Source of the DNA: an uncultured Mollicutes bacterium
Lineage (GTDB): Bacteria; Bacillota_I; Bacilli_A; ML615J-28; CAG-313
Direction of reading: 5' to 3'
DNA length: 64,000 nucleotides
Assembly: GCA_900538885.1 (NCBI GenBank)
Contig: UQAI01000002.1
Location: forward strand, 19,211 to 83,210
In this document: one piece after another, positions 3,098 to 63,845 of the stretch
How positions within the stretch are numbered: position 1 is the first letter of the stretch
Layout of the letters: every line of letters starts with the position of its first letter
Made by a program: the position numbers and the translations under genes
Notes under the pieces: model-generated
Told to the model about the DNA's origin: nothing
The model's input: only the letters and a program-made list of their open reading frames with translations
Database searches by the model: none

Positions 3098-3106
3098 CAA
3101 AGAAAT

Positions 3107-3134: not shown

Positions 3135-3144
3135 GAGGAAATAA

Positions 3145-8596: not shown

Positions 8597-8614
8597 AAAT
8601 AAAAGGAGGTAACT

Positions 8615-10415: not shown

Positions 10416-10496
10416 AGAAAATAGGGGTAATAACGAATTATGGAAAACCTTTATATAAGAAGGTGAAAATTATGATTATAGCATATACTAAAAAAT

Positions 10497-12649: not shown

Positions 12650-12804
12650 AACTAATGACTATGAGTTTATCATTAATTCTTAGGCATTAGTCTTTTTTGA
12701 AAAAATTCGTTGATTTATTCTATTGACTAATAACAAAAAATATAGTATAATTACTTTGGAAAAACATAACAATATATATTATTTCAAAATAGAGGGAAAT
12801 ACAT

Positions 12805-19572: not shown

Positions 19573-20104
<532 letters not shown>

Positions 20105-25845: not shown

Positions 25846-25848
25846 AAT

Positions 25849-27048: not shown

Positions 27049-27049
27049 G

Positions 27050-28165
27050 ATGAACGCTGCAGGTATTATTTTTGCGAATTTACAAAATGAAATGTTAGAT
27101 GAGTTAACCCGTAAAAGAACAACTGCTTCCTTACCATTTGGAGGACGTTATCGTTTAATTGACTTTGCTCTTTCTAATATTGTTTGTGCCGACATCGTTA
27201 ATGTTGCGGTAATAGCACAAAAGAATTATCAGTCATTAATGGACCATGTGGGTTCAGGTAAAGATTGGGACTTATCACGTCGTAATGGCGGCTTAACAAT
27301 TTTTCCACCATTTAGTAACTATAAGAGTGATTTCCTTTATACTAATCGCTTAGAAGCCTTAAAAACAATTAGAGGTTTTATCTCAAAAGTTAAAGATGAT
27401 ATAATTGTTTTAATGGATTGTGATAGTGTTAATGTTATTGATTTTGAAAAAGTAATTAATGAACATCTTGAAAGACAAGCAGATATTACAGTGCTATATC
27501 AAGAATGCACAGTTCCAAGTACACTTAAAAATCATATGAGTTTTGAGGTTTCAGATAATGGGAGAATTACTAAAGGAACATTAACATCAGATGAAGGCAA
27601 AAAAGCTAAAGTTGGTATTAATGTTTGGGTTATGAGTCGTCGTCTTTTACAAAGTGCAGTTGATGAAGCTATTTCATTAGGTTTAAATAACTTTGAAAGA
27701 GACATAATATTAAATAATATATCTAGTTTAAAAGTATATGGATATAAATATACAGGAATTTATTTACCAATTACTTCAATGGAAGACTATTACAAAAATA
27801 ATATGAAACTACTTGATCCAAGTATTCGTGAGGCTATTTTTGAACAAGAAGATCACCACATCTACACTAAGGTTAGAGACTCAGCTCCAACAAGATATGG
27901 AAATGATGCTAAAGTTGAAAATAGTTTTATCGCTGACGGATGTGAAATTGAAGGAACCGTTATCAATAGCATTCTTTTTAGAGGTGTAAAAGTTGGTAAA
28001 GGAACAGTAGTTAAAAATTCAATTTTAATGCAAGATACTATTACAGGTAATAATGTAACATTAGAGTGCGTAATTACGGATAAGAATGTTGCGATTAGAG
28101 ATCGTAATCATCTTGCAGGATGTGAAAAAATACCATACTATTTAAGTAAAAATGCGATGGTATAA
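27050..28165 (+). CDS. glgD: Glycogen biosynthesis protein GlgD (the regulatory, non-catalytic ADP-glucose pyrophosphorylase subunit).
   Basis: Paralogous to GlgC (AAGIIFANLQN..LPFGGRYRLIDF) but without the GGxGxR motif. RBS GGAGG lies before ATG 27050 (the track ORF starts upstream, inside glgC). Confidence 0.8.
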   Translation: MNAAGIIFANLQNEMLDELTRKRTTASLPFGGRYRLIDFALSNIVCADIVNVAVIAQKNYQSLMDHVGSGKDWDLSRRNGGLTIFPPFSNYKSDFLYTNRLEALKTIRGFISKVKDDIIVLMDCDSVNVIDFEKVINEHLERQADITVLYQECTVPSTLKNHMSFEVSDNGRITKGTLTSDEGKKAKVGINVWVMSRRLLQSAVDEAISLGLNNFERDIILNNISSLKVYGYKYTGIYLPITSMEDYYKNNMKLLDPSIREAIFEQEDHHIYTKVRDSAPTRYGNDAKVENSFIADGCEIEGTVINSILFRGVKVGKGTVVKNSILMQDTITGNNVTLECVITDKNVAIRDRNHLAGCEKIPYYLSKNAMV

Positions 28166-28225
28166 TAATCAGTTAATGAAAAAAAATAATAAAGAATAAT
28201 TTTCTATCTAGGAGGATATTTATAT

Positions 28226-29689
28226 ATGAATAGTAAAGAACAAACAGTTAAAAAGATTACATTTATCGCTTCTGAATGTCAACCATTTATCGCATCAGGT
28301 GGCTTAGGTGATGTTGTGGGTTCACTTCCTTTACGTATTGCTAAACAAACTAAAGGTGAATACGAACTTACCGTAATCTTACCATATTATTCAAAAATAA
28401 ATGAAAAGTATCGTAATAAACTTGTCTATGTTGGACAAACTACCGTTAACCTATCATGGCGTAAACAATATTGTGGTATTTTTAAGTATGAAGAAAAAAA
28501 TGTAAAGTATTACTTTATCGATAATGAATATTATTTTAAACGTGATAATCTATATGGCTATTTTGATGATGGTGAACGTTTTGCATATTTCAGTAAAGCC
28601 GCAATCGATGTAATGCTATACTTAGATGAAGTGCCAGATATTATTCATGTTCATGATTGGCAAACAGGTCTCGTACCAATTTATTTACGTACTTTATATT
28701 ATGGTGATGTTCGTTTAATGAATGTTAAAACAATATTTACTATTCATAACATTGAGTATCAAGGCTTATTCTCATTTGATGATGATATTATTGAAGATGT
28801 ATTTGGTATCTCTATTAATGATGCATACATTTTTGAATATCGTGGTTCAATCAATATTATGAAAGGAGCAATGGAAGCCGCAAACTATGTGACAACAGTT
28901 AGTCCAAGTTACGCGGAAGAAATTTGTACACCTGAGTATGCTCATGGCTTGGAAGATGAAATTAACCGAATTAAGGCCGAAAATAAATTAGTTGGTATTT
29001 TAAATGGTATTGATAAAAACTTTTATAATCCAGCCAAGGATAAAGCTTTATTCGCAAATTATGATCGTAATGATTTTACAAGTAAAGGTCTAAATAAAGT
29101 TGAATTACAAAAAATGTTAAATTTACCAGTTGATGAAAGTGTTCCAATGATTGGAATGGTAACAAGACTTGTTGGACATAAAGGTTTAGAATTTATTAAA
29201 GCAGGCTTTAACGAACTTATGGAAATGAATATTCAACTTGTAATTCTTGGTACTGGTGATCCATATTATGAAGGATACTTAAAAGATATGGAAGTTAAAT
29301 ATCATAATAAATTTAGAGCAGTTATTGCATTTAATCAAGATTTATCACGTAAGATTTATGGATCTGCTGATTTATTCTTAATGCCATCAGCGTCTGAACC
29401 TTGTGGCTTATCACAAATGATAGCAGCACGTTATGGTGCAATCCCAATGGTTAGAGAAACAGGTGGATTAAAAGATAGTATTATTGATTATAGTAAAACA
29501 AATGGAAATGGTTATACTTTTACAGGAATGGATTATCATGAGATGTTAAACATGATTAGAAGAGCTGTGAATGATTATCATCAACCTACTTGGAACGAGA
29601 AAGTCGGAAAGACAATGAATGTTGATTTTGGATGGAGCAGTAGTGCTAAGAAATATGTTTCAATGTATGACAAAATTTTAAATAGTTAA
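28226..29689 (+). CDS. glgA: Glycogen synthase (ADP-glucose type).
   Basis: ASECQPFIASGGLGDVVGSLP N-terminal motif, and a GT-B C-terminus (PSASEPCGLSQM). Confidence 0.9.
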   Translation: MNSKEQTVKKITFIASECQPFIASGGLGDVVGSLPLRIAKQTKGEYELTVILPYYSKINEKYRNKLVYVGQTTVNLSWRKQYCGIFKYEEKNVKYYFIDNEYYFKRDNLYGYFDDGERFAYFSKAAIDVMLYLDEVPDIIHVHDWQTGLVPIYLRTLYYGDVRLMNVKTIFTIHNIEYQGLFSFDDDIIEDVFGISINDAYIFEYRGSINIMKGAMEAANYVTTVSPSYAEEICTPEYAHGLEDEINRIKAENKLVGILNGIDKNFYNPAKDKALFANYDRNDFTSKGLNKVELQKMLNLPVDESVPMIGMVTRLVGHKGLEFIKAGFNELMEMNIQLVILGTGDPYYEGYLKDMEVKYHNKFRAVIAFNQDLSRKIYGSADLFLMPSASEPCGLSQMIAARYGAIPMVRETGGLKDSIIDYSKTNGNGYTFTGMDYHEMLNMIRRAVNDYHQPTWNEKVGKTMNVDFGWSSSAKKYVSMYDKILNS

Positions 29690-29716
29690 TAACTATTTAA
29701 ATAGAAAGGTAATGAA

Positions 29717-32143
29717 ATGACAACAGGATCAGTAGAAACACATGATGTGAAAAAACGTCTTGAAGATAAACTTTCCAACTATTTTGGGGTTTCTCCTCAA
29801 GACGCAAGTATAGACCAAATATATAAAGCTGTAAGTATGACTGTAGTAGATATCTTACTAGAAAAGAAAAAACAATATAATAGAAAAGTTAAAGAACAAA
29901 AAGCTAAACGTATTTATTATTTATGTATGGAATTTTTAGTAGGTCGCAGTCTAAAAACAAATCTTTATAATTTAGGAGTTGTTGACAAATATGCCAAAGT
30001 TCTTAAAGATTATGGAATTGAATTAGATGATGTTTATGAACAAGAAAATGATGCAGGACTTGGTAATGGTGGATTAGGTCGCCTCGCTGCATGTTATATG
30101 GATTCCCTTGCATCTTTAGCGTACCCCGCTACAGGCTTTTCAATTCGTTATGAATATGGCTTATTTAAACAAAAAATAGTAAATGGATGGCAAACTGAAA
30201 TGCCAGATGTATGGCTACCAGGGGGAGAAGTATGGCTTGTTCCTCGTAGTGATAGAGCGTTAAAGGTTCATTTTGGTGGATGGATTAGTGAAAAATATGT
30301 GGATGGAAAAATGAAGGTTGAATACCATGATGATAAGGTAGTAGAAGCAATGCCATACGACTTATTAATTTCAGGCGGCGATAGCGATGCTATTTCAACT
30401 CTTCGTCTATGGAGAGCTCGCAATGCAACTGAATTTGACATGAAGTCATTCTCACAAGGCGATTATTTCACCGCAATGGAAGAAAACGCTAAAGCTGAGT
30501 TAATATCAAAGGTTCTTTATCCATCAGATGATCACTATGAAGGAAAGACTCTAAGACTCAAACAACAATATTTCTTGGTAAGTGCTTCCATGCAAAATAT
30601 TGTAAATGATCATGTTAAAAGATATGGAGATTTACACACTTTACCAGACTATGCCGCAATCCATATTAATGATACGCACCCTGCTCTTTGTGTGCCAGAA
30701 TTAATGCGTTTATTAATGGATGAACATGGCTTTGGTTGGGATGAAGCATGGGATATTGTGACTAAGTGTTTAGCTTATACCAATCATACCGTTTTAGCAG
30801 AAGCCCTTGAAACTTGGGATGAAGCTTTACTTGCTAGAACACTTCCCCGTATTATCAGCATTATTTATGAAATTAATCGTCGTTATGTTTTAGAAATTCA
30901 AAAACTTAATCCTAATGATTGGAATAAAATCAATCGTATGGCTATTGTGGGAAATGGTAGAATTAGAATGGCTAATTTAAGTGTTATTGCGAGTCATACG
31001 GTTAATGGAGTATCGGCCCTACATAGTGATATTATTAAAAATAGTATCTTTAAAGATTTCTATGAAATGACACCAAACAAGTTTACAAACGTAACTAATG
31101 GTATTGCTCATCGCCGATGGCTTCATCAATCTAATCCGCGTTTATCGGCTCTTTTAAATGATTCAATTGGAACATCTTGGTATAAAGATGCAAGTCGTTT
31201 AAAAGATTTTAGAAAATACGAGGATGATGAAAAAGTTTTAGAAGAATTGGGAAAAATCAAATATTTAAATAAATGTGATTTCGTTAATTCAATTTATCGT
31301 AAACAAGGTATAATAATTGACCCATATACAAGATTTGATGTGCAAGTTAAAAGACTTCATGAATATAAAAGACAATTATTAAATGTTTTAAAAATAATTA
31401 GTTTATACAATAAATTGAAAGAAAATCCCAACTTAGATGTAACCCCTCAAACCTTTATTTTTGGAGCGAAAGCAGCACCAGGATATTACCGTGCTAAAGA
31501 AATTATTGAATTAATTAATTATATTTCACGTGATATTGAAATGCATCCAGAAATTAAAAAGAAACTTAATGTAGTGTTTGTTGAAGACTATTGTGTAACT
31601 CTAGCTGAAAAATTAATGCCAGCCAGTGAAATTAGTGAACAAATATCATTAGCCGGAAAAGAAGCAAGTGGAACTGGTAACATGAAGTTTATGATTAATG
31701 GTGCCATAACCTTTGGTACGATGGATGGAGCCAATGTTGAAATTTGTGATGCCGTTGGTGATGATAACATCTTTATTTTTGGTATGACTGCCAAAGAAGT
31801 AGATGAACTATGGAAACATGGATATAATTCAACATATTATTACAATAATAATAGCGAAATTAGAAAAATAATAGCAAGTCTTAAAAAAGGATTTGCGGGA
31901 AAAAGTTTTGAAAATATTGCGGACTACCTATTAACAAGTAATGGTATAGCAGACCAATATATGTGTCTTGCGGATTTTGAAAGTTATATGGATACTTATC
32001 AAAAGATGGATACTATCTACCAAGATAAGTTAAAATTCAACAAAATGTCACTTGTTAATATCAGTGAAGCAGGCAGATTTGCTGCAGATCGTAGTATAAA
32101 AGAATATGCAGATCGTATTTGGGGACTAAAGCCTGTCAAATAA
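29717..32143 (+). CDS. glgP: Glycogen/maltodextrin phosphorylase.
   Basis: EAxGTGNMKFM pyridoxal-phosphate site (EASGTGNMKFMINGA) and the GT35 fold throughout. Confidence 0.9.
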   Translation: MTTGSVETHDVKKRLEDKLSNYFGVSPQDASIDQIYKAVSMTVVDILLEKKKQYNRKVKEQKAKRIYYLCMEFLVGRSLKTNLYNLGVVDKYAKVLKDYGIELDDVYEQENDAGLGNGGLGRLAACYMDSLASLAYPATGFSIRYEYGLFKQKIVNGWQTEMPDVWLPGGEVWLVPRSDRALKVHFGGWISEKYVDGKMKVEYHDDKVVEAMPYDLLISGGDSDAISTLRLWRARNATEFDMKSFSQGDYFTAMEENAKAELISKVLYPSDDHYEGKTLRLKQQYFLVSASMQNIVNDHVKRYGDLHTLPDYAAIHINDTHPALCVPELMRLLMDEHGFGWDEAWDIVTKCLAYTNHTVLAEALETWDEALLARTLPRIISIIYEINRRYVLEIQKLNPNDWNKINRMAIVGNGRIRMANLSVIASHTVNGVSALHSDIIKNSIFKDFYEMTPNKFTNVTNGIAHRRWLHQSNPRLSALLNDSIGTSWYKDASRLKDFRKYEDDEKVLEELGKIKYLNKCDFVNSIYRKQGIIIDPYTRFDVQVKRLHEYKRQLLNVLKIISLYNKLKENPNLDVTPQTFIFGAKAAPGYYRAKEIIELINYISRDIEMHPEIKKKLNVVFVEDYCVTLAEKLMPASEISEQISLAGKEASGTGNMKFMINGAITFGTMDGANVEICDAVGDDNIFIFGMTAKEVDELWKHGYNSTYYYNNNSEIRKIIASLKKGFAGKSFENIADYLLTSNGIADQYMCLADFESYMDTYQKMDTIYQDKLKFNKMSLVNISEAGRFAADRSIKEYADRIWGLKPVK

Positions 32144-33338: not shown

Positions 33339-34211
33339 ATGAAAAAAATATTTTTATTATTAATGATGATCGTGTTAGCATTTGCCTTGCCAGGTTGTAT
33401 TAAAACAACAACAAATTATGATGAAGATTTTGAAAATGTTAGTAGGATATTAGAACTTACTTATATGAAAAGGGATATGATTACGTATGATTTTGAGGAT
33501 GAAGTTAATAGAATACAAGATGGTACTCATACCTTTTATACAACTAGATTAATTGATGATAAAAGCTATTATTATTGTGGATATTTTGATCCTGAAATAA
33601 CAGAAACACCAGGCTGGTTATCTTATGAATCAAGTAAAAAAGGAACATGGTTAAGGTATGATAAACAAGAAGACATACCAACAACGTATGGTGGTAAAAA
33701 AATATTTTTTAAATACAAAGTCTACATTATAAAAGTAGAAAAGGACATAATAAATAATAAAACATATAATAGAAAAATTAAATATTATCAGGATATGTTT
33801 GATGGACTTTTAGGACCTGGAAATTTTAGAAAAGGTAATAATTTATTATTGTTCTACCGTAAAAATTTATCTTTAGCACACTTTAATATTCATGGAGTTC
33901 AAAATGTGTTTTTTACAAATTTTAATTATCTTTGGACTCATCAGTTAGAAATAAATGAAGATCAAAGTAAAGATATTGTTTTTGATAATTATCAAAAAAC
34001 TTATAGCACAATAACAGGTGAACTAGAAAAAAGTACATATGTTTTTCCAGATGAAGTAAGACAATACTTCAAAATATTAGAACCATATGCTAGAGAAGAT
34101 CCAACCCTAGATGAAAATCCATATAGTTCAAAATATACATATGTAGTATATACAAAAGTTAGAATTAACCTTGATATTATAACTGCACTAGTGAAAGGAG
34201 AACTTGAATAA
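33339..34211 (+). CDS. Lipoprotein of unknown function.
   Basis: Signal peptide with lipobox LPGC (MKKIFLLLMMIVLAFALPGC). An A7 tract immediately follows the ATG. Confidence 0.7.
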   Translation: MKKIFLLLMMIVLAFALPGCIKTTTNYDEDFENVSRILELTYMKRDMITYDFEDEVNRIQDGTHTFYTTRLIDDKSYYYCGYFDPEITETPGWLSYESSKKGTWLRYDKQEDIPTTYGGKKIFFKYKVYIIKVEKDIINNKTYNRKIKYYQDMFDGLLGPGNFRKGNNLLLFYRKNLSLAHFNIHGVQNVFFTNFNYLWTHQLEINEDQSKDIVFDNYQKTYSTITGELEKSTYVFPDEVRQYFKILEPYAREDPTLDENPYSSKYTYVVYTKVRINLDIITALVKGELE

Positions 34212-36888
34212 AAAAACAATATTTGGTTTAATGGTGTTTGGAATAGTTATTTTCTTGTTTACTATTACAAGTACTAGAATTAATGCACATAGAAGGTTAC
34301 TATTAGTTGATTATGATGAATGTGAAAGTGATGATAAATTATGGTATTATTTAAATGAAGAAGATTTAAAAGATACAAATGGAATTCATAAATATTACCA
34401 TTTACCACAAGATGTCACAACAATTAAATATTATTTTTCAGAAGTAGGTGAAAAAGGTAGAGACATAACCTGGAATTCTGAAGTTAGTGCTACAATGGCT
34501 GAAGAAGTGAAAACTGCTTATGTTAACAGTATGAAAAAATGGAATGATGTGTATTATTATACTTATGATGAAGATGGCAATATGACAAAAAATCGTATAA
34601 TTAATATTGTCGAAGGAACTGAAGAAGACAATAATCTAATTATTTATCCAGAATATGCTCATGAAAGTAATTTAGCTTCAACATACCATTTGGATTCTTC
34701 AATTAAAATACCAACGGGCAGTATAACTGAGCATTATCATTATGATAAATGGTACATGAAAGTGTCGCCAGGAGCATTTAATAATCTACATAGTAAAGAA
34801 GAACTAGCAATTTCATATGAACGTACAGGTGCACATGAAATTGGTCATGTATTAGGCTTAAATGATATCGATAACTGTTGTTCTAAAATACCAAAAGATA
34901 AAGGGCATCACACAGATGCACTGATGGGGTATGGAAAAATAATTGATAGAAAATGTGATATTACATATAAAGATATTGCTGGAGTTAGTGTGACAAGGGG
35001 ATTCCATGATGAAATTGATCATGTATGGATGAAAAGAATAGAAGAAGATGGAACAAAATCTTTAATTTGTGCATTATGTAATGGAGTTAAAAGAAATGTA
35101 AGTTTGGACGCAGATGGTTCATATCGTGGCAGTTACGTAAGAGAATATAAAAGTTGTGATCATTATGGAGGAACAAACGCAGAAATGCTAGTAGTAGCAG
35201 AAGCTAAAAATAAACTATTTGTTAAATGCTTATATTGTCGAAGAATTGAAGAAATAGTTGTTGATGACACATATTCAATGGGAAGTTATACGCCTACAAT
35301 AAATCGTGAAATATCTTTATCAAATAGTCAAATTAAATATTACGAACTAAATGTAAATTATGCTAAAAATTATGAATTTTTAGTTCAAGGGACATCAAAA
35401 GTTAATTTTGAAATATTATCAGAAAATTATAATATAGTTAAAACAACTGATATAGATAATAATGATAACATTATGCATACCATTGTGCAACTACCAATAG
35501 GAAAATACTATCTTAAAGTTATAAATGATAGTGATGAACTAAACACAGTAAATTTCAAAATTCAATCAAGAACCACAATATATTTAAGTCAAAATTGCGA
35601 TAATGATATATTACTGAATAATTTTAATGGCATTATTGATTACTATTTTGTTAATGATGACAAACCTGGTTTTTATAGGTTTACGATAAGCGGTGAAATG
35701 AAAGATGGTACAACAGTTACGTATCCATTAAATTGTATTAGAGTCTATGATAATGAAAATAAAATAACACCAATGAAAAAAATTGATAATGAATTAGACT
35801 ATAAAAATGTTGCAACCAACGAGTATGGTGATAATAGTATGATAGTGCTTTTACCAAGAACTGGATATTATTATCTAAGTATTAATTTTTATCAAGAAGG
35901 ATTAAATAAATTGATACTTAGAATTGAAAATACTGAGGAAAGTTCAAACTTAAATTTGTTTAATTTGTCTGAAACAGGAAGTGATACAGCTGTTGTTTTC
36001 AATGAGGAAACAAGAGGTGATAAATTTAAATCATTAATTCTTGAACAAAAGGGTCAATTTGTTATTTCCACAAATTACTTAGGAAGTTTACAAAATAAAG
36101 TTTCAATTATTGTAATTAAAGTTAATTATAATAGTGCTCGCAACTTATATACTTTTAGTACACAAATGCTTAGTTTGTTAGATGAAGAAAATCCATATAC
36201 CGTGACAATTCTTACATTAGATGCTGGAGAATATTATATAGGATATCTCAATAACTATGATTCAGGCAGCGTTATAATTGAGTTTGAAAGACTAATTACA
36301 GTTTCTGGTAGTAAGTATTTGATAACTGATCCTAGTGCTGATACACTTTATGGTAGCGAGGTAAGGTATAATAATGGAGCGTTTCAGGGGATAACTGTGA
36401 CAATTGGATTTACTAGATTTATTTATTTTGATAGTACATTTATAGAAGTTCCGTCTTTGTCACGACTTGATTATGATTGGTATTCAAGTGATGAATCAAT
36501 AGCTACAATATCACCATATGGAACTTTATTTGGTAAAAATGCTGGAACTGTTAAAATAATGGCAGTACACAAAAGTAACCCAACTATTGTTTTTGTTAAA
36601 GAATTTATAGTGAAAAAGGATAATAGGATTGAAGATTTAACAATTGATATTGTTGATACAGTTAATTATGCTGAGAGTGGACAATTATATCAAATTAGAT
36701 TGACTGATGAAAATTCGCCATATCCATTAAATTCATTATATGACTGGAGAATTCTTCCGCCTAATAATTACGAAAAAGTAAGTTCAATTGGTACTTTTCA
36801 TATAAATAATACAGGATTAATAGTAGTAGAAGGAAGATACAAACTCAATTCTAAGGTTGTAATTAGATTAACAATTACAGCTAAATAA
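34204..36888 (+). CDS. Large secreted or anchored protein with a metzincin-like zinc metallopeptidase domain (M10-like) and a C-terminal Big_2 Ig-like domain.
   Basis: HEIGHVLGLND (HExxHxxGxxD) plus a Met-turn-like DALMGYG. C-terminal Big_2-like segment (DYDWYSSDESIATISPYGTLFGKNAGTVKI). N-terminal signal or anchor. The start is uncertain: TTG 34204 overlaps the upstream stop, and the ancestral ATG is mutated to ATA. Confidence 0.65.
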   Translation: MNKKTIFGLMVFGIVIFLFTITSTRINAHRRLLLVDYDECESDDKLWYYLNEEDLKDTNGIHKYYHLPQDVTTIKYYFSEVGEKGRDITWNSEVSATMAEEVKTAYVNSMKKWNDVYYYTYDEDGNMTKNRIINIVEGTEEDNNLIIYPEYAHESNLASTYHLDSSIKIPTGSITEHYHYDKWYMKVSPGAFNNLHSKEELAISYERTGAHEIGHVLGLNDIDNCCSKIPKDKGHHTDALMGYGKIIDRKCDITYKDIAGVSVTRGFHDEIDHVWMKRIEEDGTKSLICALCNGVKRNVSLDADGSYRGSYVREYKSCDHYGGTNAEMLVVAEAKNKLFVKCLYCRRIEEIVVDDTYSMGSYTPTINREISLSNSQIKYYELNVNYAKNYEFLVQGTSKVNFEILSENYNIVKTTDIDNNDNIMHTIVQLPIGKYYLKVINDSDELNTVNFKIQSRTTIYLSQNCDNDILLNNFNGIIDYYFVNDDKPGFYRFTISGEMKDGTTVTYPLNCIRVYDNENKITPMKKIDNELDYKNVATNEYGDNSMIVLLPRTGYYYLSINFYQEGLNKLILRIENTEESSNLNLFNLSETGSDTAVVFNEETRGDKFKSLILEQKGQFVISTNYLGSLQNKVSIIVIKVNYNSARNLYTFSTQMLSLLDEENPYTVTILTLDAGEYYIGYLNNYDSGSVIIEFERLITVSGSKYLITDPSADTLYGSEVRYNNGAFQGITVTIGFTRFIYFDSTFIEVPSLSRLDYDWYSSDESIATISPYGTLFGKNAGTVKIMAVHKSNPTIVFVKEFIVKKDNRIEDLTIDIVDTVNYAESGQLYQIRLTDENSPYPLNSLYDWRILPPNNYEKVSSIGTFHINNTGLIVVEGRYKLNSKVVIRLTITAK

Positions 36889-36991
36889 TGATGATTTTGA
36901 ATAAAAAATAATAAAAAGGTACGTTTGTACCTTTTTTCGTGTTTTTTCTATAAAACTATTTTATATAATATATGAAATAGAGGTGAAAAAT

Positions 36992-38957
36992 ATGAATAAA
37001 AAAATTATTGACAATTGTAGTGTTAATCTTTCTTTCCTTATTATATAGAAAAAATGTATATGCATCTAGTACAACTAAAGTACATTTAATATTTAATAAA
37101 ATTTCATATGATGCTGGAGAAGAAATAAAACTGACAATTAATTTAGAAAACTTTAGTAAACTAAATGAAACTAAGGTTATCATTAAATGTAATGATAATG
37201 CTTTTGTTCCAATTATGAAAAATGATAGATATGGACAAATTACTAATAATTCAATATATGAATCACCAATTATTAATGAATATGTTTTGGGTGGATATTT
37301 GAGATTTCAACTTCATAAAGATAATTTATCTGAAGGATACTATTCAGGATATAAGAATAATGTAGGGGAGTTTTATTTTGAAACAAGAAAGAAAATAACA
37401 AATATTTATGATTATTTTAGAAATGGTAATTTTGAATCTTTAACCACAGGCATTAATGTTTCATTATATGATATTTATAATCAAGAGATTTCAACGGAAT
37501 TTAAATGGAGTGAAAAAATTAAAGTTGATTGGAATGTTGATAAATACCAACTAGAAGTTTATGATGAAATTCCTCTTTTTGTTAATGATATTAATATTAC
37601 AAATCGTAATGAAAATGAATATGATTTATTTTTTCAAGATAAAATTAATAATAAAAATCTAGGGAGTCAAGTAGTGACAATTGCAATTTATGACAAAGTA
37701 AATGCTGATTATATTTTACTATCCAAAGTGGTAGAAGTGGTTGATACAACTTCGCCTGTGATTACAGGTAGTAATAATATAAGTGTTGAAAGTAATAAAT
37801 TACGTGATTTTAAAATTACTGAGTATTTTGTGGCTAGCGATAATTATGATAAAACTCCTGAGGTTGTGATTACTTATTATGATGTTGATAATAAATTAAT
37901 TAATAATCAAAATCTTTTTTTAGAATATTTATTAACTCATGTCCAAGCTAAAGTTGTCATAAAAAGTTTAGATAGTAGTGGTAATGCTAGTGATGAATTT
38001 GAAATAATAATTGAAATAAAAGATGTAGAAGCACCAACAGTTGATTATCCCAAAGAAATTAACATAAAAGATGTAGAAATTGCAGATTTTGACTTTATGA
38101 ATTATGTAACAGTAACCGATGACTATGATTCTAATCCTAGATTTATAATTACATATTTGTGTGAAAATATAGAAATAGAAGACCAAATAGATGCACTATT
38201 ACGAGGAAAAAAAGTAATTGTAAGATATTACGTAGAGGATAAAAGCAGTAATAAAACGCAAAATTACGAGACGAAAATTGAGGTTTTAGATACTACACCA
38301 CCAATAATTAATAATGTTGAAAATATAGAAATAACGGATCAAGAAGCCATTAATTTTGATTTTTCCAAGTTAGTTAGTATTAGTGATAATATTGATAAAA
38401 ACCCTAAAATTAATTTTACATATTATCTTGAAAGTCAGGAAGTATCACGTGATGAATGGAAAAAAGCAATAGTTAGGGGACATAAAGGCGTAATCAAATA
38501 TTATGGAATTGATGCAAGTAATAATAAAACAAGCGCGTTCGATACGGAAATAATCGTTTGTGATATTACACCGCCAGTTATTAAAATTCACAATATTAAA
38601 GAGGGAAATAAGTATCTAAAAATAGAAAAACTAGACTATGAGGTGTTAGATAACTTTGATGGAAATATTGATATTAGTGTAACTCTTAATGGGGTCGAAT
38701 ACCATAATGAAGGAATTACTAAACCTGGTGAATATGTATTTAAAGTAACAGCAGTTGATTCAAGTGGAAATGAATCAATTAAAGAAGTAAAATTTGAAAT
38801 TATTGAAAACAATGTCATAGGTTGTGGGGGAGATATTGAATGCTATTTGGATAATTATTTTGTGGTAGTGGTTATTGCGGGGATCTTAATGGCAATTATT
38901 TTAACAATTTTTATTGTAAGACTTTGTCTTTGGCAAAAGAAAAAGCAAGTAAAATAA
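36992..38957 (+). CDS. Cell-surface protein with four tandem Ig-like (DUF5011-like) repeats and a C-terminal TM anchor. The 5' end is frameshifted in a poly-A(7) tract.
   Basis: ATG 36992 with RBS GAGGTG gives MNKKII and then a stop. The long frame (track start TTG 37008) has no RBS. Removing one A from A7 (36998-37004) restores MNKKLLTIVVLIFLSLL... Repeats of D.T.P.I...D.YD..P...SGN. C-terminal VVVVIAGILMAIILTIFIV. Confidence 0.6.
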
Positions 38958-55900: not shown

Positions 55901-58900
55901 TTGAGTAAATACAAAGAAATACAAATTGGTATTGCATCACCTGAAGATATTGTATCATGGGCAAATCCTGTGTTACAAGGTAAAAAATTTACATACAATC
56001 CTTTAAGAAAAGATAAAGTTACATATATAGATGATAATGGTGAAGAAGTTGAATATACTTTAAAAGGCGAAGTAAAGAAACATGAAACTATTAATTATCG
56101 TACTTTAAAACCTGAAAGAGATGGTTTATTCTGTGAAGTTATTTTCGGCCCTACTAAGGATTATCAATGTGCTTGTGGACGTTCTAAAAAGAATTTAGGC
56201 GAACATAAGGTATGTGAAAAGTGCGGTGTTGAATTAACCGAAAGTAAAGTAAGACGTGAAAGAATGGGCTACATTGCTCTTGCTGCACCAGTTGTTCATA
56301 CATGGTATTTAAGAAATACTCCAAGTAAAATAGCAATCTTACTTGATATGAAAACAAAAGATGTGGAAGACATAGTTTATCTTGCATCATACATTATTAC
56401 AGAAGTAATGGATGATGAATATGAAGAATTATTTGTTGGACGTATCTTAAGTGAACAAGAACACAGCGTATTCAAACGCCGTTATCCATTTAAATATAAA
56501 GCTAAAACGGGGGCTGAAGCTATCAAGTATTTATTAAAACAACTTGATTTAGGCGAAATTATTACCGAAATTCGTCAAGAATTACATAATGCTCCAAAAC
56601 AAAGAAAAGAAAAATTAATTAAGAGACTAGAAATAGTTGAAGCATTCTATAAATCAGATAATAAACCTGAATGGATGGTAATGGATGTTGTTCCAGTAAT
56701 TCCACCCGATTTACGTCCAATGGTTCAACTAGATGGTGGCCGTTTTGCTACTACAGACTTAAATGATTTATATCGTCGTATTATTAATCGTAATAATCGT
56801 TTAAGAAAACAATTTGAACAAAATGCCCCAGACTTAATTACTAAGAATGAAAAACGTATGTTACAAGAAGCAGTAGATGCTTTAATTGATAACTCAAAGC
56901 GTAATAAACGTATGGTTGTTGACAAAAATAGACCACTTAAATCACTATCTGATATTTTAAGAGGTAAACAAGGTCGTTTCCGTCAAAACCTACTAGGTAA
57001 ACGTGTTGACTATTCAGGTCGTTCAGTTATTGTTATTGGACCAGATCTAAAGATGTACCAATGTGGTATTCCAAGAGAAATGGCTTTAATCTTATTTAAA
57101 CCATTTATCATTAGTTATTTGAGAAAGAAAGACCAATTAGCTAATGCTGAAATAGTTCCTGGAGTAATGCAACCAATAAGCAATAAAGACCGTGCAGGTA
57201 TTCAAAAGGCTAAAAAGTTAATTGAACAAGGTGCGCCAGAAGCAATGGAAGCGCTAGAAAAGATAATTGTTGAACACCCAGTTTTATTAAACCGTGCTCC
57301 AACTCTACATAGACTATCTATTCAAGCATTCGAACCTAAACTAGTTGAAGGCAAAGCAATTAGACTACATCCACTAGTAACAACTGCCTTTAATGCGGAC
57401 TTCGATGGTGACCAAATGCCAGTGCATGTACCACTATCTGAAGAAGCTCAAGCTGAAGCTCGTTTATTAATGCTTGCATCTAAAAATATTTTAGCTCCTA
57501 AAGATGGTAAGCCAATTGTTACACCATCACAAGATATGATTCTTGGTAACTACTATTTAACAATTGAAAGCCATCAAAATGAACATGAATACAAAACATA
57601 TGAAGAAGTAATAGAAGCGTATAAAAAACAAATTATTACTTTTGGAACAAACATTATTCTAAATGATGATAAAATTTATCGTAATATAAAAGAATTACAA
57701 GATGATGTTGAAAGCGGCAATGCTCCAAGCGTTGGTAAATTCTATATTCCTGCACGTGAAGGCAAAGCTTATCGTAATGCATCAGAAGTAGAAATAGCTT
57801 ATGAACGTGGCGATATTGACTTTCATACAAGATTTGTAATTCCTGCTAGTGCAGTTGGTCGTCCATTTGTACATATTAGCAATAAGATTGATCCAGAAAG
57901 TGATGAATATAAAGCATTAGTTAAGAAAAATGAAGAGTTAACAAATAAATATTTGGTAACTACATACGGTAAACTAATCGTTAACCAAATCTTCCCTGAT
58001 GGCTTCTCATATGTAAATGAACCAACAGTTAAAAACCTTGCGGTTGGAACTCCTGAAAAATATTTCTTGGATCATGGTACTAACTATAAAGAATTCATTA
58101 AGAATGCTCCATTAGTAGAACCATTTAAGAAAAAATTCTTAAGCCAAATCATAAGTGAAGTATTTAAACAAGCAAAACTTGCTGAAACATCTAAGACTCT
58201 TGATAAGATGAAAGATATTGGTTTCTATTACTCAACTATGGCTGGTATTACTGTTTCTGCTTTCGATGTTGTTAGAATTGATAAGAAAGAAGAAATCATT
58301 GAAGAAACTGAAAAGAAAGTTCAAAAATATAAACAAATGTATCGTCGTGGTACAATGAAAGATTCAGAACGTCACCGTAATATTGTACGTGAATGGTTAG
58401 GTGCAACTTCCAAAATTGAAAAAGCCATTAAAGTTATCATGGATGAAAATGCTAAGACAAATCATATTTTCATGATGGCCGACTCTGGTGCTCGTGGTAG
58501 CTCATCTAACTTCACACAACTTGCTGGTATGCGTGGACTAATGGCTAAGCCTAATGGTGACCAAATGGAAATTCCAGTTAAGGCTTGCTTTATTGAAGGT
58601 ATGTCAATGTCAGAGTTCTTCATTTCTACACATGGTGCGAGAAAAGGTTCAACTGACACAGCCTTAAAGACAGCTGAATCAGGTTATTTAACTCGTCGTC
58701 TTGTAGACGTTTCTCAAGATGTAACAGTTAAAGAAGTTGATTGTGGAACTGATAAAGGTATGGTTGTGACTACTCTATATAAGAATGATTCTGTTCAAGA
58801 TAAAGATAACGTAGATAATGTCTTAGTATCATTGAAAGACCGTATCGTTGGTCGTTTCGCTGCAAAACCTGTATATGGTAGAAATAGTGAAGGAAGAAAG

Positions 58901-59959
58901 GCATTACTTGTTGACAAAGGTGAATTTATTACGGAAGAAATCGCTGACCGTATTGTAGCAAGCAAGATTGAAGCTGTTGAAGTAAGAACTCTACTTACAT
59001 GTGACTGTGAAAATGGCGTTTGTGTAAAATGCTATGGATCTGACCTATCAACCACAAACATTGTTGAAAACGGCGAAGTTGTTGGTATCGTTGCGGCTCA
59101 ATCAATTGGTGAACCGGGTACTCAGTTAACAATGCGTACTTTCCACTCAGGTGGTGTTGCTGGTGCTGCTGATGATATCACTCAAGGTCTTCCACGTATT
59201 CAAGAATTGTTTGAAGCACGTGAACCAAAAGGTAAAGGCATTATTTCTGAAATTAAAGGTACAGTTGAAAGTATTACTCAAAAGAATGATAACCGTTTTG
59301 AAATTGTTATCAAGAGCCCAATTGAAGGTAATGACAAGACTTATTTAACTGACAGTGGTAAAAAACCAGTTGTTAAAGTTGGTCAAGAAGTTCATCCTGG
59401 TGACCTTGTTTCAGAAGGTTTAATTCATCCAAAAGAATTATTACGTGTTGGTAGTGTTGATCAAGTTGAAAAATATATTTTGAAAGAAGTTCAAAAAGTA
59501 TATCGTTCACAAGGTGTTGATATTTCTGATAAACACGTTGAAATAATCATTAAGCAAATGTTACAAAAAGTTGTAGTAATTGATGAGGGAGGCACAGAAT
59601 TATTACCTGGTACATTTATTTCTAAACCTGAATTATTGAAGGTAATTAGAGATTGTCTTGAAAAAGGCATTCGTGTACCATCTGTAAAACCTGTAATTTT
59701 AGGTATTACACGTGCATCACTTAAAGCTGATTCATTCTTGTCAGCCGCATCATTCCAAGAAACAACAAGAGTATTAACTGAAGCCGCAATCCGTGGTAAA
59801 ATTGATAAACTTGAAGGATTAAAAGAAAATATCATTATCGGTGGTTTAATCCCTGCTGGTACTGGTTTAGTTGAAGAAAAAGATATTCATCTAATTCCAA
59901 CTGATCCAGAAGATGAATTTGAAGTTCCTGCAAGTTCTGATCATATTGTTATTAAGTAA
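55901..59959 (+). CDS. rpoC: DNA-directed RNA polymerase beta' subunit.
   Basis: Zinc finger CACGRSKK...[14 protein letters not shown] catalytic motif, and Firmicute-type lineage insertions. TTG start after AGAGGTG. Confidence 0.95.
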
Positions 59960-59969
59960 CTAGGCTTTA

Positions 59970-59999
59970 AAGACCATATTTGATATATGGTCTTTTTTT
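59970..59999 (+). terminator. Terminator after rpoC.
   Basis: AAAGACCATATttgaTATATGGTCTTTTTTT. Confidence 0.7.
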
Positions 60000-60052
60000 A
60001 TGCGCTTTTTTAAAAAATGTGTTATAATTTATGATAAAAGGAGGAGTGCCGA

Positions 60053-62365
60053 ATGATTTCACGTGTAGTTGTTAATAACCCAAGTAGTAATGTTGATATT
60101 AAATATGATTATGAAGTTCCAGCTAGCTTAGTTGATATCATAAAAATTGGAACTAGAGTTAAAGTTCCTTTTGGAAACGGCAACCGAGCACTTATGGGTT
60201 ATGTTGTTGAATTAAGTGATGAAACAACATATGATAAGAGATTAAAACAAATTATTGATGTTGTAGATTTAGAACCAATAATTACCAAAACACAATTAGA
60301 TCTTGCTGAATATATTAAAAAAGATACAGTTTGTCCTTTAATTCGTGCTATTAATTTAATGGTGCCAGACATTTTATTACTTAAACCGACAAAATACATC
60401 AAGGTAAATGATTATCAAAACCTAGATGCAAATCTTGCTGAAGCATTTAAAGGAAAAAACATAATAACATATACGAGTGTCCTTGCACCATATACTAGTA
60501 AAATAAAAAAAGCAATTGATAATCACCTTTTAGAAATATCATATGATGCGGTTGGCTTAAATGCTGTTAAACAAGTTACAAAATATGTACTAGATATGAA
60601 TAAATACTATATGTATATTGATAACTTTAGATCAGACATCCAACCTCTCATTCGGATGTTAGAAGGCTTAGAACCACTAACAAAAATCGAAATTAGTGAT
60701 CGCATTGATTTATCAATATATACAATTCAAAAAATGATTAAACTTGAATTACTTGTTCCAGTAAAACAAAGAGTGTCAAGAATTAAAATAAAAGAAATAC
60801 CAGTGACAGACCGCTTTATTAAAGCAAATTCATTGTATGATAATACAGTAACAAAATTAACTAGTGATCATACAAAGCCTTCATTATGGTGCCCTTCTTC
60901 TATAATCGAGACGGAAATGGTAATTGAACGAATAATTAGAAATAATGTTGAAAAAAATCAAAATACTTTAATTATTTGCCCTGATATATTAAGTAGTTAC
61001 CGAATGGCTAGTGTTGTCAGAAAAAAAACAAATCTTTCAGTTGCAATTCTTAACTCAAATCTTAGTAAGGGTGAATACTATGATACTGCCACGGAAATAA
61101 AAAATAATAATTATCGAGTTGTTGTTACAACGACAAAAGGAGCTTTTGTTGACTATCCCAATCTTAAGACGGTAATTTTATTAGATTCTGAAAATGATAA
61201 TTATTATAATGATCAAAGTCCTCGGTATAATCTAAAGAAGATAATGATGAAATATCAAGAATTAATTAATTGCGAATTAATTTTCCACTCATATTCCCCA
61301 CTTCTTGAAGATTATATTTTAGGAGTAAAAGGTTACTTAAATATTGTTGATAATAAAATAGAAAATACTATTAATAGTGAAGTAGTTAATTTAAAGTTAG
61401 AGTTATTAAAAGGCAATAATTCGATGATTTCTTTACGACTCTTAAAAGAAATGAAACTTACAAAAGCAAAAAACAAACAAACTTTAATTATTACCAATCG
61501 CAAATATTTCAGTAATTTTGTTATGTGCCGAAGTTGTGGAGAAATACTTAAATGTCCACGTTGCGATTTACCACTTCGCTATAGTAAAAATTCTAATCAA
61601 CTTATGTGCCCAACTTGCTCATATCGTACCTCAAAGCCTGATAAATGCCCAACATGTAGTGGAGAAACATTTAGAATGGAAGGGTCAGGTATGGAACAGT
61701 TAGTAAGTGATATTAATGAATTACTACCTAATTTTAAAACTATAACAATTGATAACCCAAATTACGATGAATTTATTGATAAAATGGGCGAAGTAGAAGA
61801 TAATAAGGTAGATGTAATTATCGCAACCGATGTATATTCTAGAAGTATTGTCGATAAAAACATTGGATTAGTTGTAATAATTAATCTAGATGAAGTGGCA
61901 GGTACAGCATCGTATCTTGCGAGTGAAAGAGCATATACAATGCTTATTCATGCTTCACAAAAAGTATTAAATAGTGATACAAAACTATTAATACAAACTT
62001 ATAATCCTGACAATTTTGTAATAACTTCATTTATTACCGGCAAATATCAAGATTATTTAAAAAAAGAAATTAATAATCGAAAGGAATTAAGGAATCCTCC
62101 TTTCTATTATGTAAATAGAATTTTAGTTAAAGCTAAATATGAAGAAATGTTTAAAGAGGCAAACATAATTAAAAAACTTCTTCAAGAAATGCTAGGGTAT
62201 AAAGTTTATATTATTGGCCCTACTTATAATCATCTTCATCAAGCAGCCCAATTAATAATTAAACATCAATTAAATAATATAGAAGATGTCTATAATAAAA
62301 TTTACGATAAATATCAAAATTCAACAATAGTGGTGATAATTGATAGATATCCAAGATACATGTAG
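60053..62365 (+). CDS. priA: Primosomal protein N' (PriA) homologue with degenerate ATPase motifs.
   Basis: N-terminal 3'-DNA-binding domain (VVVNNPSSNVDIKYDYEVP...GTRVKVPFGNGNRALMGYVVEL). Cys-rich zinc region CRSCGEILKCPRCDLPL...CPTCSY...CPTCSG. The helicase core aligns to E. coli PriA, but Walker A is absent and DEEHD is replaced by DSEND. Conserved priA-fmt synteny. Confidence 0.75.
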   Translation: MISRVVVNNPSSNVDIKYDYEVPASLVDIIKIGTRVKVPFGNGNRALMGYVVELSDETTYDKRLKQIIDVVDLEPIITKTQLDLAEYIKKDTVCPLIRAINLMVPDILLLKPTKYIKVNDYQNLDANLAEAFKGKNIITYTSVLAPYTSKIKKAIDNHLLEISYDAVGLNAVKQVTKYVLDMNKYYMYIDNFRSDIQPLIRMLEGLEPLTKIEISDRIDLSIYTIQKMIKLELLVPVKQRVSRIKIKEIPVTDRFIKANSLYDNTVTKLTSDHTKPSLWCPSSIIETEMVIERIIRNNVEKNQNTLIICPDILSSYRMASVVRKKTNLSVAILNSNLSKGEYYDTATEIKNNNYRVVVTTTKGAFVDYPNLKTVILLDSENDNYYNDQSPRYNLKKIMMKYQELINCELIFHSYSPLLEDYILGVKGYLNIVDNKIENTINSEVVNLKLELLKGNNSMISLRLLKEMKLTKAKNKQTLIITNRKYFSNFVMCRSCGEILKCPRCDLPLRYSKNSNQLMCPTCSYRTSKPDKCPTCSGETFRMEGSGMEQLVSDINELLPNFKTITIDNPNYDEFIDKMGEVEDNKVDVIIATDVYSRSIVDKNIGLVVIINLDEVAGTASYLASERAYTMLIHASQKVLNSDTKLLIQTYNPDNFVITSFITGKYQDYLKKEINNRKELRNPPFYYVNRILVKAKYEEMFKEANIIKKLLQEMLGYKVYIIGPTYNHLHQAAQLIIKHQLNNIEDVYNKIYDKYQNSTIVVIIDRYPRYM

Positions 62366-62376
62366 GAGGTAAAGAA

Positions 62377-63294
62377 ATGTTAAAAATAGTTTTTATGGGA
62401 ACTCCTTTATTTAGTGTTCCAATTTTAGAAGCCTTAATTAATGAATATGAGGTAATTGGTGTAGTGACACAACCAGATAAAAAAGTAGGAAGAAAACAAG
62501 AACTTATGGCATCTCCAGTTAAAGAGTGTGCATTAAAACATAATATTCCAGTGTTTCAACCTATAAAAATAAGAACAGACTATGAAGATATAGCTGCGTT
62601 AAAACCGGATCTAATTGTTACAGCCGCATATGGCCAAATAGTTGGGATGAAACTACTAAATACTCCAAAGTATCGCTCAATTAATGTTCATGCTTCACTT
62701 CTTCCTAAATATCGTGGTGGAGCGCCAATTCATGAAGCGATTAAACAAGGTGAATCAGAAACTGGCGTTACAATCATGTATATGGAAAAAGGTATGGATT
62801 CGGGTGATATATTAGCTCAAAAGAAAATTCCAATCACTGATGAGGATAATTCAGGAACCATGTTTGAAAAATTATCATTACTTGGTCGTGATTTACTATT
62901 AGAAGTAATACCTAAACTTGTTAATGGTGAGATTGAGCCAATTAAACAAGATGAAACTAAAGTTACTTTTGCTTATAATGTGACCAAAGAAGAGGAAAAA
63001 CTAGACTTTACAAAATCCGCTAGAACGGTATTTAATCATATAAGAGCGTACAATCCATTTCCTACAGCCTATATGGAATTAGGTGGTGACATAGTGAAAG
63101 TATATGACTCAAAAATTAATGATGAAACCCATAACAAAACTCCAGGTACTATTCTAAAAACGACAAAACACGGATTTTTAATGGCTTGTGGAAATGGTAC
63201 AACTCTAGAAATTCTAGAAGTTCAACCAAGTGGTAAAAAAAGAATGAAAGCAAGCGATTATGCTAACGGAGCTATTAGAAAATATTTAAAGTAG
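62377..63294 (+). CDS. fmt: Methionyl-tRNA formyltransferase.
   Basis: KIVFMGTP, VVTQPDK, SLLPKYRGGAPI, and a C-terminal domain. Confidence 0.9.
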   Translation: MLKIVFMGTPLFSVPILEALINEYEVIGVVTQPDKKVGRKQELMASPVKECALKHNIPVFQPIKIRTDYEDIAALKPDLIVTAAYGQIVGMKLLNTPKYRSINVHASLLPKYRGGAPIHEAIKQGESETGVTIMYMEKGMDSGDILAQKKIPITDEDNSGTMFEKLSLLGRDLLLEVIPKLVNGEIEPIKQDETKVTFAYNVTKEEEKLDFTKSARTVFNHIRAYNPFPTAYMELGGDIVKVYDSKINDETHNKTPGTILKTTKHGFLMACGNGTTLEILEVQPSGKKRMKASDYANGAIRKYLK

Positions 63295-63305: not shown

Positions 63306-63845
63306 ATGAAACCAAAATTATATTATTCACGAGAAGAAATGCAAGAATTAAATACTCAAAAATTAAAAGAACGTGGTGTAACTGTTGAAGAAATTGCTTT
63401 AATAGCTTATCACCAACAAAGTAAATATAATAAAGGCGTTGATATGACAACTTGCATTGAAAGTGTAGAAAAAATACTATCATTAAGAGATATTTTTCAT
63501 CTATTACAATTGGGGGCTGAAATTGATCGCTTAACTGAAGAAGGAGCTTTTGAAGGCCCTATTCAAGATATTATGAGTTACGACCTTGGCGTATTTGGTG
63601 TTGATGAAATATTTGGACTAGATATTGCAAGACTTTATGGAGCAATAGGTCAAACTAATTTTGGGGATATTGATGTAAATAAACCTGGAATAGTAGCAAA
63701 ACTAAATGATGAAGGAAAAGGCGGGAAACCAAAATGTCATACTTTTCTTGATGATATTGTTGGAGCAATCGCTGCAGCCGCATCAACAAGAGTTGCCCAA
63801 ATTATTTCTGAAAATGAAGCAGAAGGAAAAAAAACTGATAAGTAA
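63306..63845 (+). CDS. PgpA-family (phosphatidylglycerophosphatase A-like) protein, apparently soluble.
   Basis: [14 protein letters not shown] and [16 protein letters not shown] resemble PgpA motifs (WDEFIG..., IMIDDIVAG). No TM helices. A weak call. Confidence 0.35.

Follow-up and report, generated by a model that had tools for sequence, protein, structure and literature searches.

A PriA orthologue of uncultured Bacilli with retained DNA- and zinc-binding regions and a helicase motor predicted to be inactive

To our knowledge, PriA is a near-universal initiator of replication restart in bacteria, and its helicase motifs are considered nearly unchanging, Deinococcus-Thermus being the single published exception. 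Here we describe the gene at 60053..62365 in a 64,000-nucleotide stretch of DNA (the window; G+C ~30%) from an uncultured Mollicutes bacterium, which, judged by its sequence, encodes the genome's orthologous PriA. We consider it likely that the superfamily 2 (SF2) motor of this protein has been inactivated by evolution, that the rest has been maintained by selection, and that the protein acts as a structure-specific assembly platform and not as a helicase. From the residues lost, it is predicted to be unable to hydrolyse ATP or to unwind DNA.

The gene product reached the NCBIfam model of the replication restart helicase PriA (TIGR00595; 263.5 bits against a cutoff of 230), was matched over amino acids (aa) 4-767 by the PRK05580-type model NF004066 (7.3e-110, but far below the equivalog cutoff), and covered the full Pfam profile PriA_3primeBD (PF17764; 2.9e-22, aa 4-105). 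The PriA structures of E. coli and K. pneumoniae matched it at E ~1e-36. The Pfam scan gave no DEAD, ResIII or PriA_C match, and the match to Zn_ribbon_PriA fell below its cutoff (19.5 vs 26). The initial annotation had described the protein as collinear with E. coli PriA, and this was borne out by HHalign, in which a profile of 36 members of the clade described below and a profile of 32 canonical PriAs aligned over 718 collinear columns (probability 100%, E 4e-121). It was also borne out by an AlphaFold2 model built from the clade alignment, with a predicted local distance difference test score (pLDDT) of 86.8 and a predicted template-modelling score (pTM) of 0.81: the nine best PDB matches in a Foldseek search were all PriA, headed by 8fak_H, the E. 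coli PriA in a fork/PriB complex (template-modelling score, TM, 0.73 by query and 0.86 by target), and the next fold family was Mfd (TM ~0.33). The PriA architecture is thus kept in its six parts, namely the 3' DNA-binding domain (3'BD), the winged helix, two RecA-like lobes, the Cys-rich zinc region and the C-terminal domain. The gene and its parts other than the lobes are located as follows.

60053..62365 (+): priA, an intact open reading frame (ORF) of 770 aa with an ATG start, ending in a stop codon.
60053..60367 (+), aa 1-105: 3'BD, by the PF17764 match and alignment to the E. coli 3'BD (2d7e/8fak).
60368..60862 (+), aa ~106-270: winged helix and linker, the least conserved part, which holds a chance 'AEAFKGKN'.
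61514..61672 (+), aa 488-540: Cys-rich region with eight invariant Cys, an insertion in helicase lobe 2.
62123..62362 (+), aa ~691-770: C-terminal domain, in which 17 of 80 columns are at least 90% conserved in the clade.

The 3'BD and the Cys-rich region are both retained, as the initial annotation had proposed. The 3'BD residues of canonical PriA that are kept comprise Y20, G33, F40-G41, G49, K65 and P105, among which F40 and G41 are invariant within the clade and K65 aligns with K61 of E. coli. Cys 492, 495, 501, 504, 519, 522, 532 and 535 are invariant in 36 clade sequences and align with the canonical cysteines, implying that the two Zn sites are retained, and the canonical CHxC of this region is CPxC in the clade. 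To place these residues among the conserved positions of the whole protein, we considered the 112 columns with a conservation of 90% or more among canonical PriAs: 40 are kept in the clade and 38 are essentially lost, the latter clustering in the ATPase motifs and motif Ib. Kept columns outside the 3'BD include the eight Cys, LNSxLSxxE, Y384/P390/Y392 in the loop after motif II, N482, G546, D613, IQTY.P, E672, R676, P683, G722-P723 and K737; G722-P723 and K737 are C-terminal domain residues common to the clade and canonical PriA.

The positions of the ATPase and helicase motifs read as follows.

60881..60922 (+), aa 277-290, SLWCPSSIIETEMV: motif I (Walker A), without the Gly-rich loop and without Lys-Thr.
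61172..61231 (+), aa 374-393, VILLDSENDNYYNDQSPRYN: motif II region, in which DExH has become DSEN.
61286..61300 (+), aa 412-416: motif III, canonical GSATP replaced by HSYSP.
61823..61846 (+), aa 591-598: motif V, canonical GTQMxxKG replaced by ATDVYSRS.
61949..61972 (+), aa 633-640: motif VI, canonical QxxGRAGR replaced by HASQKVLN, with both arginine fingers gone.

At motif I, the canonical LLHGVTGSGKTEV corresponds to LWCPSSIIETEMV (aa 279-291) in the query. The string that the initial annotation had quoted in place of Walker A is present there, and Walker A is absent at its expected place. At motif II, the canonical IIIDEEHDxSY has become VILLDSENDNY (aa 374-384), in agreement with the earlier reading of DEEHD as DSEND. 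Alignment with canonical PriA confirmed these two losses and added those of motif III, of most of motif V, of motif VI and of the invariant Gln upstream of motif I. The register at motifs I and II differs by one residue between programs, since HMMER aligns E286 with the Walker A lysine and D378 with the Walker B Asp and both MAFFT and HHalign shift the two by one, but in either register the Gly-rich loop, the Lys-Thr/Ser, the catalytic Glu and the His are absent at motifs I/II. In the structural model, only three residues separate the strand at 277-280 from a helix that begins at 284, and the eight-residue phosphate-binding loop would be replaced by a short turn.

Two findings would have overturned the claim of motif loss, a functional Walker A elsewhere in the protein or a frameshift that hides the motif, and neither was found. 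GK[ST] is absent from the protein and from the six frames of 59900..62500, save for one irrelevant minus-strand match beside a stop codon, DExH/D is absent anywhere in the protein, no Walker A was found in a helicase context, and the lesions are conserved over 44 species. A general decay of motifs in an AT-rich genome was rejected because six other P-loop proteins of the window (FtsK, YlqF, an AAA_14 ATPase, FtsY, Ffh and RuvB) keep a perfect Walker A; RuvB, with its GPPGLGKT, is intact. We also rejected a Pfam Helicase_C match (1.6e-07) as a sign of activity because it falls within lobe 1 (aa 292-382) instead of lobe 2 and reflects generic RecA-fold similarity. Parts of the dead lobes are highly conserved: the stretch YYNDQSPRY after motif II is the most conserved of the clade, and some clade-specific stretches, ESDNYYNDQSPRY and CPxC, are more conserved than the corresponding parts of canonical PriA.

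Relatives share the degenerate motifs, a point that the initial annotation had left to be checked. A word-indexed homologue search gave 81 clusters (P0001-P0081) at 35-99% identity, whose precomputed Pfam annotation consists of the 3'BD alone or the 3'BD with a weak Helicase_C match; after 35% there is a sharp drop to 29% identity or less, where DEAD, ResIII, the Cys-rich region and PriA_C are present in every match. Motifs I, II, III and VI are absent in all ~75 aligned full-length clade members and kept in 37/37 canonical matches, and the P-loop pattern is present in 39/39 canonical matches. No clade member has GRxGR. A scan of one genome per GTDB species found the motif-less form at 44 loci, all from uncultured, metagenome-assembled organisms of guts (human, primate, ruminant, rabbit and other) or digesters, under titles such as 'Bacilli bacterium', 'uncultured Mollicutes bacterium', 'Staphylococcus sp. 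CAG:324', 'Acholeplasmatales bacterium UBA11505' and 'Erysipelotrichaceae bacterium'. A study of the RF39/RFN20 lineages (PMC7301438) lists some of the assemblies, without a clade label, as human-gut 'uncultured Mollicutes'. The GTDB order RFN20 is a likely candidate for the placement of the query's group (group A below), which record titles and paper supplements did not confirm.

An exhaustive HMMER search with the clade profile was run over 1.84 billion representatives. The full-length clusters at 50% identity that lack the motifs number 36 and fall into two groups, A (the query type) and B (P0176-P0222), the latter named, where names are given, as primosomal protein N' of Acholeplasma sp., Acholeplasmataceae bacterium or Bacilli bacterium. 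Both groups keep the eight Cys and differ in how far the motifs are eroded.

Motif I position: IPxxxxE in group A; FSNDEEFK in group B, with no Gly-rich loop and no T/S and often with a Lys in the old Lys column.
Motif II: DxE[SN]DNY in group A, where the motif varies as D/N-x-E/D-S/N; DEE[ND] kept in group B.
Motif III: SxxP in group A; S-[ST]-P kept in group B.
Motif V: mostly lost in group A; GT(N) kept in group B.
Motif VI: absent in both groups.

A neighbour-joining tree with the motif columns masked split A+B from all canonical PriAs in 200/200 bootstraps, with A nested among B. PriA identity between A and B is only ~30%, no higher than that between A and canonical PriA (29-30%), and the Fmt comparison likewise does not group the A and B genomes. 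Long-branch attraction may affect the A+B grouping. One ancient loss followed by stepwise erosion is therefore favoured but not proven.

Variation at motif VI was also seen among canonical PriAs in which GKT and DEEH are present (P0213, P0220, P0226, P0228, P0240, P0252 and P0274), with forms such as GRTGR, GRPGR, GRCGR, GRCAR and GRIRN. In two of them, P0252 (GRIRN) and P0274 (GRCAR), the second arginine is missing, and a similar erosion may be beginning there.

The gene neighbourhood supports the orthology. In the window, priA starts 93 nucleotides (nt) after rpoC (55901..59959) and fmt begins 11 nt past priA, and the following elements flank it.

59969..59995 (+): terminator-like hairpin, an 11-bp stem followed by a T run, directly 3' of rpoC.
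60019..60045 (+): extended -10-like TGtTATAAT and an AAGGAGG ribosome-binding site (RBS), the latter 8 nt upstream of the priA ATG, identified by reading the sequence.
62377..63294 (+): fmt (methionyl-tRNA formyltransferase; Formyl_trans_N/C), the conserved downstream neighbour.
63306..63845 (+): pgpA-like gene, the third gene of the conserved priA-fmt-pgpA block.

Because the rpoC-priA spacer holds a terminator-like hairpin, a -10-like site and an RBS of its own, priA looks independently expressed. The order rpoB-rpoC-priA-fmt-pgpA occurs in most group A loci and priA-fmt-pgpA in nearly all. The closest PriAs with canonical motifs also lie directly upstream of fmt (L050), in one case as priA-fmt-pgpA (L051), and a group B genome (L048/L049) has the order recG - plsX - rnc - dnaD-like - nth - ... 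- gmk - rpoZ - ROK - priA - fmt - pgpA - ... - sdaA, of which we take gmk-rpoZ-..-priA-..-fmt to be the classical Firmicute neighbourhood as in B. subtilis. The priA-fmt-pgpA block is thus common to the motif-less genes and their canonical relatives, indicating that the motif-less gene is the ancestral priA, a positional orthologue and not an extra copy, and upholding the synteny argument of the initial annotation. The adjacency to rpoC in group A is a later rearrangement, since neither group B nor the canonical relatives have priA beside rpoC.

The identical PriA protein occurs on 21 independent human-gut metagenome contigs. On one of them (L046), an ISL3-family transposase at 8444..9715 (-) replaces rpoC directly upstream of priA, so that in some strains the rpoC-priA junction is a site of rearrangement.

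The gene is under strong purifying selection, the dead lobe 1 included. Between the query and its 94%- and 92%-identical orthologues (L001 and L002), the synonymous divergence (dS) is 0.46-0.51 and the nonsynonymous divergence (dN) 0.03-0.04, which gives a dN/dS of 0.068-0.083, and the value between L001 and L002 is 0.097. By region, dN/dS is 0.052-0.065 in lobe 1, 0.08 in lobe 2 and the Cys-rich region, and 0.04-0.12 in the C-terminal domain. The length of the protein in the clade is 754-785 aa. Identities within the clade are 34-53% for PriA, 64-86% for RpoC and 51-77% for Fmt.

On these results, fork recognition and primosome assembly without unwinding is the most likely function, an assignment that follows from analysis of the retained and lost parts and from the behaviour of the motor-dead E. 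coli K230R and the D. radiodurans PriA, both discussed below. In this mechanism, the protein would bind abandoned forks and D-loops through the 3'BD pocket, which would take the 3' end of the nascent leading strand, and through surfaces of the winged helix and the C-terminal domain. The loop after motif II, which is retained and would contact single-stranded DNA (ssDNA), would help in fork binding; we take it to correspond to the 'aromatic-rich loop' in the structure of PriA from K. pneumoniae. Through Gram-positive partners of the DnaD / DnaB / DnaI type, the protein would nucleate the reloading of the replicative helicase. The lagging-strand arm would be left un-unwound by the motor-less PriA, and fork remodelling would presumably be left to other enzymes such as RecG and RuvAB.

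The initial annotation had called for a search for alternative restart factors, and this was answered in part. A search of the 64-kb window for DnaD, DnaB, DnaI and RecG found none of them, but a group B genome (L048) has, at 1488..5826 (+), 5-8 kb upstream of its motif-less priA, a recG with intact GEVGSGKT and DEEH and a short DnaD-like gene of 204 aa with a DnaD_N match and a weak DnaB_2 match. The latter contrasts with an older survey in which tenericutes had no DnaD and DnaI homologues (PMC3290774).

Several points weigh against the reading of the protein as an inactive assembly platform. The empty search of the window is one of them, and the DnaD-like gene was seen solely in a group B genome. 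Our view of each neighbourhood covers ~20 kb around priA, and a second, canonical priA could lie beyond. The ratio of PriA to Fmt identity is 0.54-0.73 in the clade and 1.0 in the single canonical pair compared, indicating that constraint is relaxed relative to canonical PriA, yet clearly purifying; the faster evolution of PriA relative to Fmt could mean a relaxed or shifted function. Motif Ib is altered from GxRSA to TTxKG, and if it contacts DNA, as in SF2 helicases, part of the ssDNA track may be altered too. Finally, a review proposes that E. coli PriA has a second, weak nucleotide site (PMC5778457), so that some binding of nucleotide by the query is conceivable.

Among other explanations, the one that survives best, although we hold it to be improbable, is that the protein has acquired a new role outside restart, as a sensor of DNA structure or a factor in transcription-replication conflicts, given its fixed place behind rpoBC. 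The rpoB-rpoC-priA order conserved in most group A loci, the clade-specific conserved stretches ESDNYYNDQSPRY and CPxC (for CHxC) and the faster evolution of PriA relative to Fmt than in the canonical pair all fit such a role. Co-transcription with rpoBC as a functional link is, however, weakened by the hairpin and the separate promoter-like site and RBS between rpoC and priA, and by the later origin of the rpoC adjacency, as group B and the canonical relatives share priA-fmt-pgpA and not rpoC. Moreover, everything that defines fork recognition by PriA is retained, and PriA is known to support restart without its motor (PMC4504706, PMC5778457).

We give a low probability to an NTPase or translocase that is still active through a non-canonical or relocated nucleotide site, either a string at aa ~128 or a weak second site of the E. 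coli type. The winged-helix string LAxxFxGKxxIxYT (60410..60440, aa ~120-130) is conserved, and ten clade members match [AG]x4GK[ST] near aa 125-138, but we regard this match as due to chance and rejected the 'AxxFxGK[ST]'-like string as a P-loop because its setting is the winged-helix region and no RecA-like strand-loop-helix, because the query has GKN there, and because it lacks conservation across the clade. Group B keeps DEE and often has a Lys in the column of the Walker A lysine, and a review raises the possible second nucleotide site in E. coli PriA; on the other side, the query has lost the Q residue and motif III along with the catalytic Glu and the two arginine fingers, and K230R alone abolishes the activity of E. 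coli PriA (PMC5778457).

Slightly less probable still is a divergent paralogue that keeps split-off functions of PriA, with a canonical PriA elsewhere in the genome doing the helicase job. The ~20-kb limit of the neighbourhood view leaves room for one, but the motif-less copy occupies the ancestral priA-fmt(-pgpA) position, no high-similarity canonical PriA appeared under 'Bacilli bacterium' or 'Mollicutes' names of metagenome-assembled genomes, the two homologue searches each break off sharply at 35% identity and resume only at 29%, and a duplicate is unlikely in small, reduced genomes (PMC7301438). An assembly or frameshift artefact or a decaying pseudogene, in which the motifs are hidden or eroding neutrally, has next to no probability and is refuted by the results: PriA does diverge faster than its neighbours RpoC and Fmt within the clade, but the 770-aa ORF is uninterrupted with no GK[ST] hidden in any frame, the protein is identical on the 21 contigs and the same lesions recur in 44 species, dN/dS is low in every domain (0.07-0.10 overall), the AlphaFold2 model is confident, and the gene has its own RBS and -10-like site.

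Returning to a motor-less assembly platform, we tentatively propose a history for it, which we think possible but somewhat doubtful: PriA would have been dismantled stepwise in reduced-genome, Mollicutes-related Bacilli, and the dead lobes would have gained clade-specific conserved surfaces (ESDNYYNDQSPRY, CPxC). The series would begin with a canonical PriA at the priA-fmt-pgpA locus and pass through the Acholeplasma-like group B, with the P-loop and arginine fingers gone and DEE, S/T-P and GT still there, to the gut lineage of group A, with all motifs gone, and would end with the total loss of priA in most Mycoplasmatales. The clade-specific surfaces could serve as a new docking platform for primosome partners.

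That the motor has been lost a second time, independently and much more thoroughly, is relevant to the question of how far PriA depends on its helicase activity. The loss has become fixed, under strong purifying selection, in a large lineage of guts and digesters that consists of uncultured, low-GC Bacilli with reduced genomes and abounds in the guts of humans and animals. It thereby lends support to the view that the essential job of PriA is fork recognition and primosome assembly, not unwinding, and would extend this view to Gram-positive (DnaD/DnaB/DnaI) systems. The residues that stay invariant without the constraint of an ATPase map what a scaffold needs, namely the 3'BD pocket, the eight Cys, the loop after motif II, IQTY.P, ExxxR..P and the C-terminal domain. 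If the stepwise dismantling is true, the lineage offers a long natural experiment, in a DnaD/DnaB/DnaI-type organism, on which parts of PriA are needed for restart, with a minimal scaffold as its outcome. For annotation, the proteins of this clade that are named 'primosomal protein N'' or 'replication restart helicase' are almost certainly not helicases. We regard the finding as moderately interesting for replication restart and for annotation; it introduces no new principle.

Elsewhere in the window, all genes taken as real (ORFs of at least 120 aa) are on the + strand except a Cof-type hydrolase at 4779..5609, and the GC skew is positive in every 2-kb bin, so that the window lies wholly on a leading strand with an extreme co-orientation of genes. 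The following features were also observed.

656..2377 (+): 573-aa ORF with an N-terminal membrane domain (aa 10-171, a weak match to the MPN527-family ECF transporter permease) and a complete glycerate kinase (aa 211-570); it starts with GTG, and its N-terminal part may instead belong to an upstream gene that the mechanical ORF call has run together with the kinase.
2408..3097 (+): 229-aa protein that consists nearly throughout of four or five tandem zinc ribbons (DZR / Zn_Ribbon_1) and has no other domain.
9987..14094 (+): small accessory island between signal peptidase I and ylqF/rnhB/topA, with a RhuM-family fragment at 9987..10415 and an AAA_14+DUF4143 ATPase at 12805..14094.
10497..11153, within the island: ORF whose first 36 aa are a RhuM C-terminus, followed by a DUF1016/YhcG PDDEXK nuclease, suggesting a disrupted or fused gene.
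19573..19971 (+): 132-aa ORF that matches only the first ~120 of ~275 residues of aldo-keto reductases (DkgA/DkgB), probably a truncated remnant.
24007..32143 (+): complete glycogen operon with glgB, glgC, glgD, glgA and glycogen phosphorylase, which is notable for a reduced-genome gut lineage.
33339..38957 (+): three consecutive ORFs (290, 894 and 649 aa) with no Pfam/NCBIfam family save a marginal Ig-like Big_3_3 match, located where the GC content of the window is lowest (0.257-0.28); surface proteins specific to the lineage are a possible identity.

Compared with known systems, the clade shares its domain order, a length of ~770-800 aa, the eight-Cys zinc region, the 3'BD and the site upstream of fmt with canonical Firmicute PriA of the B. 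subtilis / S. aureus type. It differs in that the canonical PriAs of the aligned set have GxGKT, DEEH, SAT, GTQM..KG and GRAGR without exception and match Pfam DEAD, ResIII and PriA_C, whereas the clade proteins match none of these three families. Actinobacterial PriA is flagged in UniProt as having no detectable helicase domains. This group (PRK14873) is also divergent, but it scores weaker against the query (E 1e-12 to 1e-41, far below cutoffs) and, at ~650-700 aa, is shorter, and we liken it to the clade by description and score only. It has been called 'smaller and very divergent' (Rocha 2005, PMC1193525), and most Mollicutes are without priA altogether (PMC1193525).

A functional model for the query is provided by the E. 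coli PriA variants K230R, K230A and K230D, which are motor-dead and still assemble primosomes in vitro, with phenotypes close to wild type in vivo (PMC5778457). The priA300 allele (K230R) has no ATPase, helicase or translocase activity, is near wild type in vivo and supports restart in vitro; its failures are limited to the PriA-PriC pathway, to Mu transposition and to part of stable DNA replication (PMC5778457). These variants differ from the clade in being laboratory point mutants with the other motifs intact that act through PriB and DnaT (PMC5778457).

The closest natural counterpart is the PriA of D. radiodurans, which has no ATPase or helicase activity, binds ssDNA (Kd ~215 nM) and forks (~108 nM), and interacts with DnaB (PMC4504706). 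Like the query, it is a full-length orthologue with degenerate Walker A/B in a lineage-wide state, and of the features by which it is regarded as a pseudohelicase, descent from PriA, motifs I/II that are not conserved and a maintained gene are found in the query, for which inactivity and retained binding of DNA and of the helicase-loading machinery are predicted. The lesion in Deinococcus-Thermus is mild, consisting of Lys to Arg in a recognisable P-loop GKT and a poor Walker B (PMC4504706; Lopper, Boone & Morrow 2015), whereas in the clade the Gly-rich loop has disappeared entirely, as have motif III, the Q residue and the arginines of motif VI. The clade also belongs to another phylum, and its loss is independent of that in Deinococcus because it occurred in Bacilli, at the Firmicute priA locus; its likely partners are of the Firmicute DnaD / DnaB / DnaI type. 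Our literature searches for a PriA pseudohelicase in Mollicutes or Bacilli found no description of one. The protein described here thus appears to be the second natural PriA pseudohelicase after that of Deinococcus, with a loss that is far more complete.

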